Origin: a virus
Taxonomy: Duplodnaviria > Heunggongvirae > Uroviricota > Caudoviricetes
DNA: 8,687 nucleotides
Strand: one strand, 5' to 3'
IMG/VR virus record: IMGVR_UViG_2896595138_000004
Shown here piece after piece: positions 1-8,687 of this stretch (position 1 is the first letter of the stretch; each line of letters starts with the position of its first letter). Both the position numbers and the translations under genes were made by a program. The notes under the pieces were generated by a model, which did no database searches, was not told the origin of the DNA, and saw only the letters and a program-made list of their open reading frames with translations.

Positions 1-375
<375 letters not shown>

Positions 376-600
376 ATTTAACGCCTTACGCAGTTGCAGA
401 ATTTCAGATTCCAGTTCAGCCACCGTGCGGGAACCAGGAGTACCGAGCCCTTTTCTGGCGGCGGTAACCCATTGTCCTAAAGTGCCTTCAGGAAGGGATA
501 ATCGGGAAGCGCCTTCACTGATCGAAAGTTGATTTTCAAGAACCGTTCTGACAGCTTCGGCTTTGAACTCTTTAGAGTAACGTTGGGTTTTTCTGCTCAT
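376..600 (-). pseudogene. IS600-like orfA, truncated after about 75 codons by the IS911 insertion
   Basis: Product MSRKTQRYSKEFKAEAVRTVLENQLSISEGASRLSLPEGTLGQWVTAARKGLGTPGSRTVAELESEILQLRKALN ends at a stop codon supplied by the terminal TGA of the IS911 inverted repeat (373-375), i.e. the reading frame is cut by the inserted element. Confidence 0.6.
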
Positions 601-664
601 TATTAGCTCCTTCTGATGCCATTCTATTTCAGGAAGGAGTGTCCGTTAAACTCAGGCTACCTCA
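376..664 (-). mobile_element. IS600-like IS3-family element, left-end fragment interrupted by the IS911 insertion
   Basis: Reverse complement of the 664 end reads TGAGGTAGCCTGAGTTTAACGGACACTCCTTCC... (TG terminus), then a strong SD (AAGGAG, 6-nt spacer) and an orfA start at 600; the orfA product resembles IS600 OrfA. Lambda-T/H-like sequence resumes at 665. The 664 boundary is inferred from the TG terminus and where phage sequence resumes. Confidence 0.6.
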
Positions 665-766
665 GAGAACGGGATACCGGAGCGAACGGACGAAGAACTG
701 ATGCATCTTGGGGAAGGTATTTCCGGAGGTGTGCGTTATGGACCAGATAGCCAACCTGGTCATTGA
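665..766 (+). pseudogene. 3' remnant of tail assembly chaperone gene (lambda T-like), 5' part removed or displaced by the IS insertion
   Basis: Frame 2 is open from the IS boundary (665) to TGA at 764-766, reading ENGIPERTDEELMHLGEGISGGVRYGPDSQPGH, and overlaps the H start as the T stop overlaps H in lambda. Assignment to T rests on position and gene order only; I cannot verify the residues from memory. Confidence 0.3.
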
Positions 767-3700
767 TTTGGGGATTGATGCGGCAGAGTTTAAAAATGAA
801 ATTCCCCGTATCAAAAACCTTCTGAATGGTGCAGCCGGTGATGCAGAACGGTCTTCTGCCCGTATGCAGCGTTTTATGGAGCGTCAGACTCAGGCGGCCC
901 GGCAGACAATGCAGGCGGCTTCTTCGGCTGCAACAGCAGCATCAGCCCATGCGCAGACGGTGGAGAAGAATGCACGGGCTCATGAACGCATGGCCCGTGA
1001 GGTGGAACAAACCCGTCTGCGCGTGGATGCCCTGAATCAGAAAATGCGCGAGGAACAGGCGCAGGCCAGGGCACTGGCGGAGGCGCAGGATAAAGCGGCT
1101 GCCGCCTTTTATCGCCAGATTGACAGTGTGAAACAGGCCGGTGCGGGGCTTCAGGAATTACAGCGTATTCAGCAGCAGATCCGACAGGCCAGAAACAGTG
1201 GCGGGGTTGGTCAGCAGGATTATCTGGCGCTGATTTCGGAGATCACGGCGAAAACCCGTGCCCTGACGCAGGCAGAGGAACAGGCCACCCGGCAGAAAGC
1301 GGCGTTTATCCGCCAGCTTAAAGAGCAGGCAACCCGCCAGAATCTGTCGTCTTCTGAGTTGCTTCGCGCCAGGGCGGCTCAGCTGGGGGTAAGCAGTGCT
1401 GCAGAAGTGTATATCCGCAAAATGGAGCGGGCAGGAAAAGCCACACATTCGCTGGGGCTGAAAAGTGCGGCAGCCCGGCGGGAGCTGGGGGTGTTAATCA
1501 GTCAGATGGCGCGCGGCAATTTTGGTGCGCTGAGGGGAGCCGGGATAACGCTGGCTAACCGTGCCGGATGGACAGGCGCACTGATGTCGCCGAAAGGCAT
1601 GATGACTGGCGGCGTTATTGGCGGACTTGTCGCGGCGGTCCTGGGTCTGGGTAAAGCCTGGCATGACGGCCGGAAGGAGGGCGAGGAATTTAACCGTCAG
1701 CTGGCGCTGACGGGACATTATGCCGGTGTCACTGTCGGGCAGTTGTGGAAACTCAGCCGGGCCATATCCGGGAATGGTATCACGCAACATGCGGCAGCCG
1801 GTGCGCTGGCACAGGTGGTGGGCAGTGGGGCATTTCATGGAAACGATATTGGTATGGTGGCGAAAGCTGCCGCACAGATGGAGCGATCGGTTGGCCAGTC
1901 GGTCAGCGATACCATAAATCAGTTTAAGCGGCTGAAGGATGATCCTGTAAATGCCGCGAAGGCGCTGGACAATGCGCTGCATTTTTTGACTGCCACTCAG
2001 CTTGAGCAGATACGCGTCCTTGGGAGCAGGGGCGGTCCAGTGATGCGGCCCGGATCGCCATGTCTGCGCTGGCAGAGGAAACCGGTAAACGCACATCTGA
2101 TATTGATAATAATCTCAATGCGCTGGGTAGTACGCTGCAAACCTTGTCTGACTGGTGGAAGCAGTTCTGGGATGCGGCCATGAATATTGGTCGTGAAGAC
2201 TCGCTGGATGCGCAGATTGATGCGTTACAGGAAAAAATTCAGCGCGCGAAAAAATATCCGTGGACAAACGCCTCCACACAGGTGGAGTACGATCAGCAGC
2301 GTCTTAACGATCTTCAGGAGAAAAAACGCCGGAAGGATTTGCAGGATGCAAAAGCGCAGGCAGAACGGAATTACCAGGAGCAACAGAAACGCCGGAATGC
2401 TGAAAATGCCGCGCTGAACCGGATGAATGAAACGGAAGCTGCACGACATCAGCGGGAAATTGCGCGTATTAATGCCATGCAGTACGCCGACCAGGCTGTC
2501 AGGGATGCGGCGATACAGCGTGAAAATGAACGTTACGAAAAAGCCATTAAGAAAAATACACGGGCAACCCGTAATGATGAGGCCACCCGGTTATTGCTGC
2601 AGTACAGTCAGCAACAGGCACAGGTGGAAGGGCAGATTGCTGCTGCCAGACAGTCAGCAGGCATTGCCACTGAAAGGATGACTGAAGCGCATAAACAGCT
2701 TCTGGCCCTGCAGCAGCGCATCAGCGACCTGGACGGGAAAAAGCTGACGGCAGATGAAAAGAGTGTGCTGGCCCGTAAGAATGAGCTGATTCAGGCGCTG
2801 ACGCTGCTGGATGTGAAACAGCAGGAGCTGCAGAAACAGACAGCGCTTAACGACCTGAGAAAAAAAACGGTTCAGCTGACCAGCCAGCTGGCAGACAAAG
2901 AACGTGCACTGCGTGAGCAGCACAATCTGGATATTGCCACTGCAGGTATGGGGGATAAGCAGCGGCAGCGCTACCAGGCACAGTTGCGCATCCGGCAGGA
3001 ATACCGGCAACAGTTGCAACAGCTTGAGAATGACAGTCGCCAGAAAGGCACTTACGGGACGGAGGACTACCGGAGGGCTGAGGAGGTGCTGAAGGGGAGC
3101 CTGAAGCGACAACTGAATGAAAACAAACGCTACTGGCAGGAACTGGAAGTGGCGCAGGGCGACTGGAAAAACGGTGCCATGCGGGCGTTTCAGAATTTTA
3201 CGGCGGATGCGGATAATGCGGCGGGAACGGCAGAACAGATGTTTACAGTGGCATTCAGCAGTGCCGGTAATGCACTGGCGACATTCTGTACCACCGGTAA
3301 GCTGAATTTTAAATCCTTCACCTCTTCCCTGTTGTCAGATATGGCCAGAATTATGGCACAGATGGCCATGATGCAGGCGGTAAAGGGCGTCGGTTCTTTA
3401 TTCGGCTCCACGACTAATGCTGATGGCGGTGTTTACCAGTCTGCTGATTTGAGTCGCTACAGTGGCACGGTGGTTAACCGTCCGACGTTTTTTGCTTTTA
3501 CAAAAGGCGCGGGTGTGATGGGGAAGCGGGACCTGAAGCCATTCTGCCACTGCGTCGCGGTGCTGATGGTAAGCTGGGGGTTGTGGCGGATACTGGTGGT
3601 TCAGGCATGGTGATGTTTGCCCCGCAGTACAACATCGGGATCAATAACGACGGCACGAACGGGCAGATAGGTCCGGCAGCACTGAAGGTGGTTTATGACC

Positions 3701-3777
3701 TCGGGAAAAAAGCGGCCGCGGACTTTATGCAACAGCCGGCCCGTGATGGTGGCCGGTTAAGTGGAGCATACCGGTAA
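738..3777 (+). pseudogene. H: Tail tape measure protein (lambda gpH family), about 1013 codons if repaired; interrupted by two -1 frameshifts
   Basis: ATG at 738 preceded by GGAGG (725-729, 8-nt spacer). N-terminus MDQIANLVIDLGIDAAEFKNE aligns with lambda H MAEPVGDLVVDLSLDAARFDEQ; C-terminus ...NIGINNDGTNGQIGPAALKVVYD matches lambda H ...VINNDGTNGQIGPAALKAVYD. The frame passes 0 -> 2 at GGG 2022-2024 (RVLG|EQGRSSDAARIAMSALAEE) and 2 -> 1 at GGGG 3520-3523 (GVMG|EAGPEAILPLRRGADGKLGVVADTGGSG). Stop TAA at 3775-3777 overlaps the M start. Confidence 0.85.
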
Positions 3778-4105
3778 TGGAGACGTTTCGCTGGAAGGTG
3801 CGCCCGGATATGAATGTGGTATCAGAGCCAAAAGTGGTGGCAGTGAAGCTGGGTGATGGTTATGAACAGCGTCGCCCGGCGGGACTGAATAATCTGCTGT
3901 CGACTTACAGCGTGACGATACGTGTTCGTAAAGGTGAACACCCACCTTTAAAAGCCTTTCTGGAACGGCACGGTGGCGTCCGCGCATTTCAGTGGACGCC
4001 ACCTTATGACTGGAAACCGATCAGGGTGGTTTGTCGTAAATGGTCGGCAAACGTGGGGCGTTATGGGTGACTGTAACGGCCGATTTTGAACAGGTGGTGA
4101 ACTGA
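3777..4105 (+). pseudogene. M: Minor tail protein M (lambda gpM family), 109 codons if repaired; -1 frameshift 16 codons before the end
   Basis: METFRWKVRPDMNVVSEPKVVAVKLGDGYEQRRPAGLNNLLSTYSVTIRV... aligns with lambda M MKTFRWKVKPGMDVASVPSVRKVRFGDGYSQRAPAGL... Frame 0 stops at 4068-4070, but frame 2 from the GGGG run at 4055-4058 reads ALWVTVTADFEQVVN-stop (TGA 4103-4105), matching the lambda M C-terminus ...VEFSAEFEQVVN and restoring the TGATG overlap with L. Confidence 0.8.
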
Positions 4106-4803
4106 TGCAGGATATCCGGCAGGAAACACTGAATGAATGCACCTGTGCGGAGCAGTCAGCCCGGGTGGAGCTCTGGGAAATCGATCTGACAGAGGTCGGT
4201 GGTGAGCGTTATTTTTTCTGTAATGAGCAGAACGAAAAAGGTGAGCCGGTTACCTGGCAGGGGCGGCAGTATCAGGCATACCCCATTCAGGGGACGGGAT
4301 TTGAACTGAACGGCAAGGGCAGTGCTGCCCGTCCGATACTGACGGTCTCTAACCTGCACGGCATGGTCACCGGGATGGCGGAAGACCTGCAGAGTCTGGT
4401 CGGCGGAACGGTGGTCAGGCGTAAGGTTTACGCCCGTTTTCTGGATGCGGTGAACTTCGTCAACGGAAACAGTGACGCCGATCCGGAGCAGGAGGTGATC
4501 AGCCGCTGGCGCATCGAGCAGTGCAGCGAACTGAGCGCGGTCAGTGCCTCTTTTGTACTGTCCACGCCGACGGAAACGGACGGTGCTGTTTTTCCGGGGC
4601 GCATCATGCTGGCTAATACCTGCACCTGGACCTATCGCGGTGATGAGTGCGGTTATCACGGTCCGGCTGTCGCTGATGAATATGACCAGCCGACGTCCGA
4701 TATCACGAAGGATAAATGCAGCAAATGCCTGAGTGGTTGTAAGTTTCGCAATAACGTCGGCAACTTTGGCGGCTTCCTTTCCATTAACAAACTTTCGCAG
4801 TAA
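4105..4803 (+). CDS. L: Minor tail protein L (lambda gpL family), 232 aa, intact
   Basis: MQDIRQETLNECTCAEQSARVELWEIDLTEVGGERYFFCNEQNEKGEPVTWQGRQYQAYPIQGTGFELNGKG... is near-identical to lambda L as I recall it; same length as lambda L (232 aa); ATG overlaps the M stop (TGATG). Confidence 0.9.
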   Translation: MQDIRQETLNECTCAEQSARVELWEIDLTEVGGERYFFCNEQNEKGEPVTWQGRQYQAYPIQGTGFELNGKGSAARPILTVSNLHGMVTGMAEDLQSLVGGTVVRRKVYARFLDAVNFVNGNSDADPEQEVISRWRIEQCSELSAVSASFVLSTPTETDGAVFPGRIMLANTCTWTYRGDECGYHGPAVADEYDQPTSDITKDKCSKCLSGCKFRNNVGNFGGFLSINKLSQ

Positions 4804-4808
4804 ATCCC

Positions 4809-5552
4809 ATGACACAGACAGAATCAGCGATTCTGGCGCACGCCCGGCGATGTGCGCCAGCGGAGTTGTGCGGCTTCGTGGTGAGAACGCCGGAGGGGGA
4901 AAGATATTTTCCCTGCGTGAATATCTCCGGTGAGCCGGAGGCGTATTTCCGGATGTCGCCGGAGGACTGGCTGCGGGCAGAGATGCAGGGTGAGATTGTG
5001 GCGCTGGTCCACAGCCACCCCGGTGGTCTGCCCTGGCTGAGTGAGGCTGACAGGCGGCTGCAGGTGCAGAGCGATTTGCCTTGGTGGCTGGTCTGCCGGG
5101 GTGAGATTCATAAATTCCGCTGTGTGCCGCATCTTACCGGGCGGCGCTTTGAGCACGGGGTGACGGACTGTTACACGCTGTTCCGGGATGCTTATCATCT
5201 GGCGGGGATTGAGATGCCGGATTTTCATCGCGGGGATGACTGGTGGCGTCACGGTCAGAATCTCTATCTGGATAATCTGGAGGCCACAGGGCTGTATCAG
5301 GTGCCGTTGTCAGCGGCGCAGCCGGGCGATGTGCTGCTGTGCTGTTTTGGTTCATCGGTGCCGAATCATGCCGCCATTTACTGTGGTGACGGCGAGCTGC
5401 TGCACCATATTCCTGAACAACTGAGCAAACGAGAGAGGTATACCGACAAATGGCAGCGACGCACACACTCCCTCTGGCGTCACCGGGCATGGCACGCATC
5501 TGCCTTTACGGGGATTTGCAACGATTTGGCCGCCGCATCGACCTTCGTGTGA
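4809..5552 (+). CDS. K: Tail assembly protein K (lambda gpK family): N-terminal JAB/MPN (JAMM) domain plus C-terminal NlpC/P60-like domain, 247 aa, intact
   Basis: Uninterrupted 247-codon ORF starting 6 nt after the L stop. Contains a canonical JAMM motif H68-S-H70-x7-S78-x2-D81 (HSHPGGLPWLSEAD, nt 5010-5051) and a Cys-containing NlpC/P60-like segment (GVTDCYTLF). Overlaps I by 103 nt, as K and I do in lambda. Confidence 0.9.
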   Translation: MTQTESAILAHARRCAPAELCGFVVRTPEGERYFPCVNISGEPEAYFRMSPEDWLRAEMQGEIVALVHSHPGGLPWLSEADRRLQVQSDLPWWLVCRGEIHKFRCVPHLTGRRFEHGVTDCYTLFRDAYHLAGIEMPDFHRGDDWWRHGQNLYLDNLEATGLYQVPLSAAQPGDVLLCCFGSSVPNHAAIYCGDGELLHHIPEQLSKRERYTDKWQRRTHSLWRHRAWHASAFTGICNDLAAASTFV

Positions 5553-6088
5553 AAACGGGGCCGAAGCCATCCGGGCGCTGGCCACACAGCTCCCGGCGTT
5601 TCGTCAGAAACTGAATGACGGCTGGTATCAGGTGCGCATTGCCGGGCGTGATGCAGGTGAAACCGAATTATCTGCCCGTCTTAATGAGCCGCTGGCAAAT
5701 GGTGCAGTGATCCACATAGTACCGCGTCTGGTGGGAGCTAAAAGTGGCGGTGTGTTTCAGGCGGTGCTGGGGGCGGCTGTTATGGCGGTTGCTATATGGA
5801 TGCCGGGGTAGGAATTATGGCGAGTAATCTGCTGTTTTCTCTCGGTGCCAGTATGACGCTTGGCGGTGTTGCACAGATGCTGGCACCGAAAGCCAGAACT
5901 CCCGTACACAGACAACGGATAACGGTAAGCAGAACACATATTTCTCGTCACTGGATAACATGGTTGCCCAGGGCAATGTTCTGCCCGTTCTGTACGGTGA
6001 AATGCGCGTGGGGTCACGTGTGGTTTCTCAGGAGATCAGCACGGCAGACGAAGGGGATGGTGGTCAGGTTGTGGTGATTGGTCGCTGA
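5450..6088 (+). pseudogene. I: Tail assembly protein I (lambda gpI family; N-terminal ubiquitin-like domain ending in GG), about 213 codons if repaired; three -1 frameshifts
   Basis: MAATHTLPLASPGMARICLYGDLQRFGRRIDLRVKTG matches the lambda I N-terminus; the C-terminus ...TDNGKQNTYFSSLDNMVAQGNVLPVLYGEMRVGSRVVSQEISTADEGDGGQVVVIGR-stop (TGA 6086-6088) matches the lambda I C-terminus. The frame passes 2 -> 1 at GGGG 5557-5560, 1 -> 0 at GGGG 5805-5808 and 0 -> 2 at CCC 5901-5903. Confidence 0.8.
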
Positions 6089-6148: not shown

Positions 6149-8687
6149 ATGGGTAAAGGCAGCAGTAAGGGGCATACCCCGCGCGAAGCGAAGGACAACC
6201 TGAAATCCACGCAGTTGCTGAGTGTGATTGATGCCATCAGCGAAGGGCCGGTTGAAGGTCCGGTGGATGGATTAAAAAGCGTGCTGCTGAACGGTACGCC
6301 GGTGCTGGACAGCGAGGGGAAGACAAACTTTTCCGGTGTTACGGTGGTGTTCCGTGCAGGTGAGCAGGAGCAGACACCGCCGGAGGGTTTTGAATCCTCC
6401 GGCTCCGAGACGGTGCTGGGTACGGAAGTGAAATATGACACGCCGATCACCCGGACCATCACGTCGGCAAACATCGACCGTCTGCGCCTGACCTTCGGTG
6501 TGCAGGCACTGGTGGAAACCACCTCAAAGGGTGACCGGAATCCGTCGGAAGTCCGCCTGCTGGTTCAGATACAGCGTAACGGTGGCTGGGTGACGGAAAA
6601 AGACATCACCATTAAGGGCAAAACCACTTCGCAGTATCTGGCCTCGGTGGTGGTGGGTAACCTGCCGCCGCGCCCGTTTAATATCCGGATGCGCAGGATG
6701 ACACCGGACAGCACCACAGACCAGCTGCAGAACAAAACGCTCTGGTCGTCGTACACCGAAATCATCGATGTGAAACAGTGCTACCCGAACACGGCACTGG
6801 TCGGCGTACAGGTGGATTCGGAGCAGTTCGGCAGCCAGCAGGTGAGCCGTAATTATCATCTGCGCGGGCGTATTCTGCAGGTGCCGTCGAACTATAACCC
6901 GCAGACGCGGCAATACAGCGGTATCTGGGACGGAACGTTTAAGCCAGCATACAGCAATAACATGGCCTGGTGTCTGTGGGATATGCTGACCCATCCGCGC
7001 TACGGCATGGGGAAACGTCTTGGTGCGGCAGATGTGGACAAATGGGCGCTGTATGTCATCGGCCAGTACTGCGACCAGTCAGTGCCGGACGGATTTGGCG
7101 GCACGGAGCCGCGCATCACCTGTAACGCTTACCTGACCACACAGCGTAAGGCGTGGGATGTTCTCAGTGATTTCTGCTCGGCGATGCGCTGTATGCCGGT
7201 ATGGAACGGACAGATGCTGACGTTCGTGCAGGACCGACCGTCGGATAAGGTGTGGACCTATAACCGCAGTAATGTGGTGATGCCGGATGATGGCGCGCCG
7301 TTCCGCTACAGCTTCAGCGCCCTGAAGGACCGCCATAATGCCGTTGAGGTGAACTGGATTGACCCGGATAACGGCTGGGAGACGGCGACAGAGCTTGTTG
7401 AAGATACGCAGGCCATTGCCCGTTACGGTCGTAATGTCACGAAGATGGATGCCTTTGGCTGTACCAGCCGGGGCAGGCACACCGAGCCGGGCTGTGGCTG
7501 ATTAAAACGGAACTGCTGGAAACGCAGACCGTGGACTTCAGCGTGGGCGCAGAAGGGCTTCGCCATGTACCGGGTGATGTCATTGAAATCTGCGATGATG
7601 ATTATGCCGGTATCAGCACCGGTGGTCGCGTACTGGCGGTGAACAGCCAGACCCGGACGCTGACGCTCGACCGTGAAATCACGCTGCCGTCCTCCGGTAC
7701 CACGCTGATAAGCCTGGTTGACGGAAGTGGCAATCCGGTCAGCGTGGAGGTCCAGTCCGTCACCGACGGCGTGAAGGTGAAAGTGAGCCGGGTTCCTGAC
7801 GGCGTTGCCGGATACAGCGTGTGGGGGCTGAAGCTGCCGACGCTGCGTCAGCGCCTGTTCCGCTGCGTGAGTATCCGTGAGAACGATGACGGCACATATG
7901 CCATCACCGCCGTGCAGCATGTGCCGGAAAAAGAGGCCATTGTGGATAACGGGGCACACTTTGACAGTGACCGGCGCGGCACGGTGAATGGTGTCACGCC
8001 GCCAGCAGTGCAGCACCTGACCGCAGAAGTCATCGCAGGCAGCGGGGAATATCAGGTGCTGGCGCGCTGGGACACGCCGAAGGTGGTGAAGGGGGTGAGC
8101 TTCCTGCTTCGCCTGACCGTGGCAGCGGATGACGGCAGTGAGCGGCTGGTCAGCACAGCCCGGACGACGGAAACCACATATCGTTTCACGCAGCTTGCGT
8201 TGGGGCGTTATACGCTGACAGTCCGGGCGGTAAATGCCCGGGGCAGCAGGGCGATCCGGTGTCGGTATCGTTCCGGATTGCGGCACCGGCAGCGCCTGTC
8301 ACTATTGAACTGATACCGGGGTATTTTCAGATAACGGCGGTCCCGAAACTGGCTGTATATGACCCGACGGTGCAGTTTGAGTTCTGGTTTTCGGAAAAGC
8401 GGATTGCGGATATCAGGCAGGTTGAAACCAGCGCCCGCTATCTTGGCACGGCGCTGTACTGGATAGCCGCCAGTATCAATATCAGGCCGGGCCATGATTA
8501 TTATTTTTACGTTCGCAGTGTGAACACCGTTGGCAAATCGGCATTTGTGGAGACCATCGGTCGGGCGAGCGATGATGCGGAAGGTTATCTGAATTTTTAT
8601 AAAGGGTTGATCAATAAAACGCACCTCGGCAAGGAACTGCTGGAAAAAGTCGAGCTGACGGAAGATAACGCCAGCAGACTGGAGTAA
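6149..8687 (+). pseudogene. J: Host specificity protein J (central tail fibre, lambda gpJ family), N-terminal about 846 codons; two -1 frameshifts; reading frame reaches TAA at the window end
   Basis: MGKGSSKGHTPREAKDNLKSTQLLSVIDAISEGPVEGPVDGLKSVLLNGTPVLD... is near-identical to the lambda J N-terminus, with high similarity throughout. The frame passes 2 -> 1 at GGGG 7470-7473 (TSRG|QAHRAGLWLIKTELLETQ) and 1 -> 0 at GGGG 8240-8243 (AVNARG|[15 protein letters not shown]). In-frame TAA at 8685-8687 follows ...[10 protein letters not shown], where lambda J continues for roughly 285 more residues. Confidence 0.9.

Follow-up and report, generated by a model that had tools for sequence, protein, structure and literature searches.

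The tail tip gene J of the prophage remnant described here is cut by an IS4 element whose first bases, TAA, provide an in-frame stop after codon 846. Very probably this IS4 is a hybrid joint between one copy inserted into J and another inserted between yceK and mdoH, a history that we infer from the two sequences flanking the element. The window, that is the whole stretch of 8,687 nucleotides that was analysed, corresponds to L002:1743-10429 of CP026845.1 (assembly GCA_002950375.1), the one record retrieved by an exact match to the protein of its last ORF. Its left bound, 1743, falls on the stop codon of a minus-strand IS911 orfA and its right bound, 10429, on that of the last J gene call; because the window was cut at gene-call boundaries, a stop codon at its edge is expected and no coincidence. 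The following features were assigned.

1-375, minus strand: left part of IS911 (whole element L002:869-2117), the ends TGAAGTGG... being read directly
376-663, minus strand: left-end fragment of a second IS3-family element, ISSfl11/ISEc52-like, from match annotation and a 75-aa HTH_Tnp_1 gene call
664-737, plus strand: 3' end of T; homology to E. coli prophages begins at 664
738-3777, plus strand: tape measure gene H, split in three (gene calls and Pfam)
3777-about 4105, plus strand: M (gene calls and Pfam)
4105-4803, plus strand: L (gene calls and Pfam)
4809-5552, plus strand: K (gene calls and Pfam)
about 5516-6088, plus strand: I, broken (gene calls and Pfam)
6149-8684, plus strand: J', codons 1-846 of the lambda-type tail tip protein J (tblastn against lambda J)
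7468, plus strand: J frameshift, GGGGG to GGGG, a deletion absent from L130, L132, RM10740 and lambda
8240, plus strand: second J frameshift, GGGGG to GGGG, from comparison with relatives
8672-8684, plus strand: IS4 target CAGCAGACTGGAG, 13 bp, present as a single copy abutting the IS4 left end (comparison with RM10740 and FDAARGOS_536)
8685-8687, plus strand: TAA, at once the stop of J' and nucleotides 1-3 of the IS4 left inverted repeat (downstream sequence read)
L002:10427-11850, ending at the equivalent of window position 10108: whole IS4, 1424 bp (sequence read and alignment)

Translation of positions 8625-8687 yielded 20 residues followed by a stop, in agreement with the preliminary description, in which J ended in TAA at 8685-8687. 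That description had also taken J as one continuous frame, which does not hold: three frames (6149-7501, 7531-8313 and 8259-8687) are found here. In tblastn searches with lambda J (1132 aa, NP_040600, from NC_001416), residues 1-449, 442-701 and 699-846 matched in frames 2, 1 and 3 with identities of 96%, 94% and 88%, respectively, the last segment aligning to 8241-8684. The final codon of J' matches lambda residue 846, at which point lambda goes on with EFSKEWKD...; with 286 residues absent, J is indeed far shorter than its lambda counterpart, and the earlier estimate of about 285 missing residues was close. Pfam domains of J' include FNIII-A_GpJ, Phage-tail_3 and Ig_J. The H-M-L-K-I-J gene order is the same as in lambda and residues 1-846 of J' are 88-96% identical to it, whereas lambda J residues 847-1132 have no equivalent in J'. 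These residues include the LamB-binding C-terminus of lambda J. The C-terminal receptor-binding region (lambda residues about 847-1132) was absent from both the window and the 10 kb downstream of it.

Reading the source sequence across the left junction gave ...CAGCAGACTGGAG followed directly by TAATGCCGATCAGTTAAGGATCAGTTGACCGATCC..., and the right junction, 1424 bp further on, consists of ...CTTAACTGACTGGCATTA followed by CGGCATAACGCCGGTATTTTT. The ends of the intervening element are TAATGCCGATCAG... and ...GACTGGCATTA, with terminal inverted repeats of the type TAATGCC... at both; two annotated IS4 copies have exactly these ends. End-to-end alignment with two RefSeq-annotated IS4 copies of 1426 bp returned 12-13 mismatches and 2 one-base gaps over 1426 columns. 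The two characteristic domains, PF13006 (Nterm_IS4) and PF01609 (DDE_Tnp_1), lie on two ORFs, the transposase being split here by two 1-bp deletions in C runs; in the sister assemblies described below it is a single ORF of 442-448 aa. The element shares its terminal repeats, its Pfam domains and approximately 99% identity over the full length with the known IS4 of E. coli (IS4 family, IS4 subgroup; 1426 bp, DDE transposase InsG), from which it differs in having no target-site duplication and in carrying flanks from two different IS4 targets. The genes past IS4 in the 10 kb downstream are mdoH, mdoG, mdoC, clsC, ymdB, ymdA and csgC; over the 10 kb that follow the stop, genes for tail proteins, fibres or Lom-like proteins are lacking.

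Elements of the IS4 subgroup make direct repeats of 10-13 bp upon insertion (PMC2266710, Table 1). Here, the 13-bp flanks differ, with CAGCAGACTGGAG on the left and CGGCATAACGCCG on the right, and a direct repeat of 10-13 bp around the element, looked for in both flanks, is absent. The flanks are unlike each other, and there is therefore no target duplication; this identifies the copy as a joint produced by recombination or rearrangement and is no argument against its identity as IS4. A simple insertion of IS4 into J was rejected, the sequence past the right end of the element not being J.

Each of the two flanks recurs beside a simple IS4 insertion in other genomes. In E. coli RM10740 and FDAARGOS_536, IS4 occupies the identical J nucleotide in the identical orientation, bordered by the 13-bp duplication CAGCAAACTGGAG, and J picks up again past the element (GAGTTTTCGAAAGAG...); beyond the resumed J, RM10740 has lom and tail fibre genes, whereas the tail fibre gene of FDAARGOS_536 is truncated. 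BLAST retrieved two more genomes, 21AR0173 and AREA_492, that match the J-IS4 junction. The insertion point, the orientation and the IS4-supplied TAA in these four strains are the same as in J'. They differ from the source in what follows: behind IS4 and the 13-bp duplication they continue with J, whereas the source continues with mdoH-side chromosome. On the other side, IS4 with the duplication CGGCATAACGCCG sits between yceK and mdoH in strain 789 and 13 other E. coli, so that this site is occupied in 14 of 5426 complete E. coli genomes, and the right junction is the same as that of the source. The mdoH-side target lies inside a palindromic, terminator-like sequence, and the yceK/mdoH intergenic palindrome AAAAAATACCGGCATAACGCCGGTATTTTT is a recurrent IS4 site (L002:11851-11880; L004:2764-2776 and 4203-4215). 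The J target and the mdoH target have 7 of 13 positions in common. In the source, lpxL on the left and mdoH on the right have kept their native order and orientation, and the 3' part of mdtG, msyB and yceK are absent from the locus.

Because each flank matches a simple, duplication-flanked IS4 elsewhere, the element is best read as a joint formed by recombination between two copies, the most likely history of the locus. One IS4 would have inserted into J at its preferred target and a second between yceK and mdoH; the two copies would then have recombined homologously, leaving a single hybrid IS4. The outcome would be the detachment of the J 3' end, lom and the side tail fibre genes, and the loss of the mdtG 3' end, msyB and yceK from the locus. 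If the two copies were direct repeats, all of the segment comprising the J 3' end, lom, stf and mdtG'-msyB-yceK would have been deleted; if they were inverted, the same J'-IS4-mdoH joint would have arisen together with a reciprocal yceK-IS4-J3' joint at another place. The detached DNA, which comprises lom, the side tail fibre genes and the end of J that binds the receptor, would accordingly have been either deleted or relocated. For IS copies that are devoid of target duplications, the main causes named in published work are recombination of one IS copy with another and adjacent deletion (PMC11708052). An ancestor with both IS4 copies was not found. Both J-IS4 joints were sought with the degenerate 16-mer CAGCAGACTGGAGKAR in 596 Gb of contigs, a pattern too short for this task, which returned chance matches in unrelated phyla only; likewise, no reciprocal joint was located at the five IS911 places in the source chromosome, among the matches listed by an IS911 OrfA look-up.

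A look-up with the L protein revealed the locus also in GCA_031665755.1, GCA_000211975.2 and GCA_002968245.1, as well as in several contigs from short reads, of which at least one breaks off near IS4. The J'-IS4 junction is identical base for base in all four long loci, and the comparison of these sequences indicates that the J'-IS4-mdoH junction is real and inherited. In GCA_002968245.1 (a 3.3-Mb contig), J' is a single ORF of 846 codons closed by the TAA of IS4, the tape measure protein has 1013 aa, the IS4 transposase 442 aa and the mdoH product 847 aa. In GCA_031665755.1, MdoG is intact with 511 aa, and J differs from that of the window only at the two frameshift sites, which read GGGGG instead of GGGG. 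The tape measure (1013 aa), M (109 aa), K (247 aa) and I (186-200 aa) proteins are intact in the sister assemblies.

The preliminary description had offered three origins for the stop without choosing among them, namely a nonsense change, a junction with an insertion or rearrangement, and a modular replacement. The second of these is correct, the TAA being the first triplet of IS4, and the left terminal repeat of the element continues past 8687, where it had been suggested to look for IS termini; the other two were refuted. A nonsense point mutation or sequencing error, turning GAG or GAA into TAA with J homology going on downstream, would agree with the megablast alignments to intact J, which end exactly 3 nt before the window end and are, taken alone, compatible with a terminal mismatch. 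What follows the last J codon, however, is 1424 bp of IS4 and then mdoH-side chromosome, and a resumption of J homology downstream of 8687 was looked for and not seen. Furthermore, the lambda codon at the TAA position is GAG, so that a point mutation would take two substitutions, and the junction is common to four assemblies, all of which leaves this explanation with practically no probability. An exchange of the receptor-binding part for another module, or for a separate ORF just downstream, fits the mosaic nature of J C-termini among lambdoid phages and the fact that the homology of several EIEC prophages to J' stops at window position 8635. Nevertheless, the 10 kb downstream contain IS4 and housekeeping genes only, with no tail genes, and we give such an exchange no more credence than a point mutation. 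The view that the host-range determinant is unreadable from the window proved right and can be put even more strongly, in that the receptor-binding end is not contiguous with J' at all.

A transposition-coupled deletion, in which a single IS4 at one site moved to or attacked the other without leaving a duplication, would yield the same junctions as recombination between two copies. Other IS are reported to move in this way, with large deletions but with neither duplications nor evidence for recombination between IS copies (PMC11708052). IS4 prefers the targets present in both flanks, and it could conceivably have attacked the J site intramolecularly. Against this scenario, IS4-family transposases act by cut-and-paste, and adjacent deletions caused by a single element are not normal for them. 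IS4 is, moreover, present in multiple copies in Shigella (PMC7373316), which makes substrates for recombination plentiful; a single-element origin is consequently improbable. Even less probable is an assembly artefact that misjoined J'::IS4 and IS4::mdoH over the repeated IS4. The systematic 1-bp errors in G/C runs described below do indicate an imperfect assembly, but the same join is present in three further assemblies from different projects, on contigs of 4.8 Mb and 3.3 Mb and on an older one of 260 kb, and the sequence on either side of the locus otherwise follows the E. coli backbone.

The left flank of the hybrid IS4 proposed here is a target that was used repeatedly. The J nucleotide was hit by IS4 in at least three J alleles (window 8672-8687; L003:4159-4174 and 5598-5610; L138:3159-3174), throughout in the same orientation and with an immediate TAA stop supplied. 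The IS4 copies at this site are 99.0-99.4% identical to each other, and the adjacent 1 kb of J are 90.5-93% identical; since the copies are closer to one another than the flanking J sequences are, the insertions appear younger than the alleles and, as far as these identities can tell, were probably independent in the different alleles. IS4 is strongly selective for its targets, which fits recurrent insertion into J. One may speculate, with some reserve as the idea is rather unlikely, that codon 846/847 is an IS4 hot spot at which the recurrent loss of the tail receptor-binding domain was possibly selected, seeding IS4-IS4 deletions of prophage ends.

Compared with the closest E. coli relative, the window contains eight indels, all of them 1-bp deletions in G/C runs (2025, 3520, 4055, 5557, 5805, 5901, 7468 and 8240). 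The two at 7468 and 8240 shift the J frame, and H, M and I contain the remaining six. In the source, IS4 (two indels) and mdoG (one) have likewise lost single bases from G/C runs. The frames of H, M, I, J, the IS4 transposase and mdoG are all broken by these indels. Shortened runs amounted to 6 of 13 G/C 5-mers (a manual count; the script gave 5 of 13, the sixth, at 7468, having been misplaced in the alignment) and 2 of 28 G/C 4-mers, as opposed to none of 49 A/T runs. Because the losses are one-sided, composition-specific and absent from the sister assemblies, we read the frameshifts in these six genes as probable homopolymer assembly errors and not as decay.

On its left, the remnant is bordered by another recombinant IS joint, the second at this locus. 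The IS3-family fragment at 376-663, which IS911 interrupts, lies directly against the 3' end of phage gene T. The 3-bp flanks of IS911 differ (gcg versus att), and a 3-bp duplication is lacking. The closest E. coli relative of the tail genes, at 97.6% identity, belongs to the EIEC strain RMDEC465, where they form part of a lambdoid prophage at yecE/yecD. Because this relative sits at yecE/yecD, away from mdoH, and the left border is itself recombinant, the fragment may have arrived by several rearrangements, which would suggest a multi-step history of the locus rather than one deletion. Pieces of prophage appear to have been scattered by IS recombination in the source chromosome. A complete set of head, tail, lysis, regulatory and integration genes was not encountered, the locus holding only T'-H-M-L-K-I-J' between IS elements; judged by this gene content, the remnant would be unable to produce particles and J' would have no host-range function.

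Within E. coli, the tail genes have their nearest relatives in EIEC prophages, of which the one examined carries ipaH. Together with the IS content and the ipaH-prophage relatives, these EIEC nearest neighbours point to a Shigella-like source genome. IS4 and IS911 are among the five IS that have expanded in all Shigella species (Hawkey et al., PMC7373316). The locus, bounded by IS911, the IS3-family fragment and IS4, is of the same kind as the IS-mediated decay of prophages and genomes in Shigella and EIEC. Neither the element nor the gene that it truncates is new, and IS-driven decay of prophages and genomes is familiar in this lineage; beyond annotation the locus is of slight importance, an ordinary case of a dead prophage remnant decaying through IS elements in a genome that is IS-rich and Shigella-like. 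In annotation, the short J should be labelled a pseudogene of J, truncated by IS4, and not a variant host-specificity protein, and no host range can be assigned to the remnant. By the same token, the frameshifts in H, M, I, J, IS4 and mdoG should not be annotated as pseudogenisation. The locus does offer a textbook case of mismatched IS flanks that would record recombination between two target-specific insertions.

Several further observations concern the surroundings and relatives of the remnant. In the RMDEC465 prophage (NZ_CM177019.1, 335000-392000; L001, L006 and L007), ipaHd is located past the tail fibre genes, and J and the tape measure gene are annotated as pseudogenes. Two of the sister loci, L131 and L132, contain an extra IS3-family insertion between I and J (12029-13185) that is present neither in the window nor in GCA_031665755.1. 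Elsewhere in the source chromosome (CP026845.1, 1368948-1385250; L146), a lambdoid left arm with integrase, gam, kil, cI-like and cro-like genes is cut by another IS911; this arm adjoins a pectinesterase-like gene, and unrelated chromosomal genes lie beyond its IS911. To the left of the remnant, IS911 links a truncated serine-recombinase gene to the inside of the IS3-family element (L002:869-2405), and mdtG is broken after approximately 184 bp by an island that starts with a large serine recombinase (L002:225-870; L008:20026-32463). In E. coli GN4751, the mdtG island spans approximately 11 kb and includes phage-like baseplate and tape-measure genes, and the same mdtG-island junction is found in 19 complete E. 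coli genomes.
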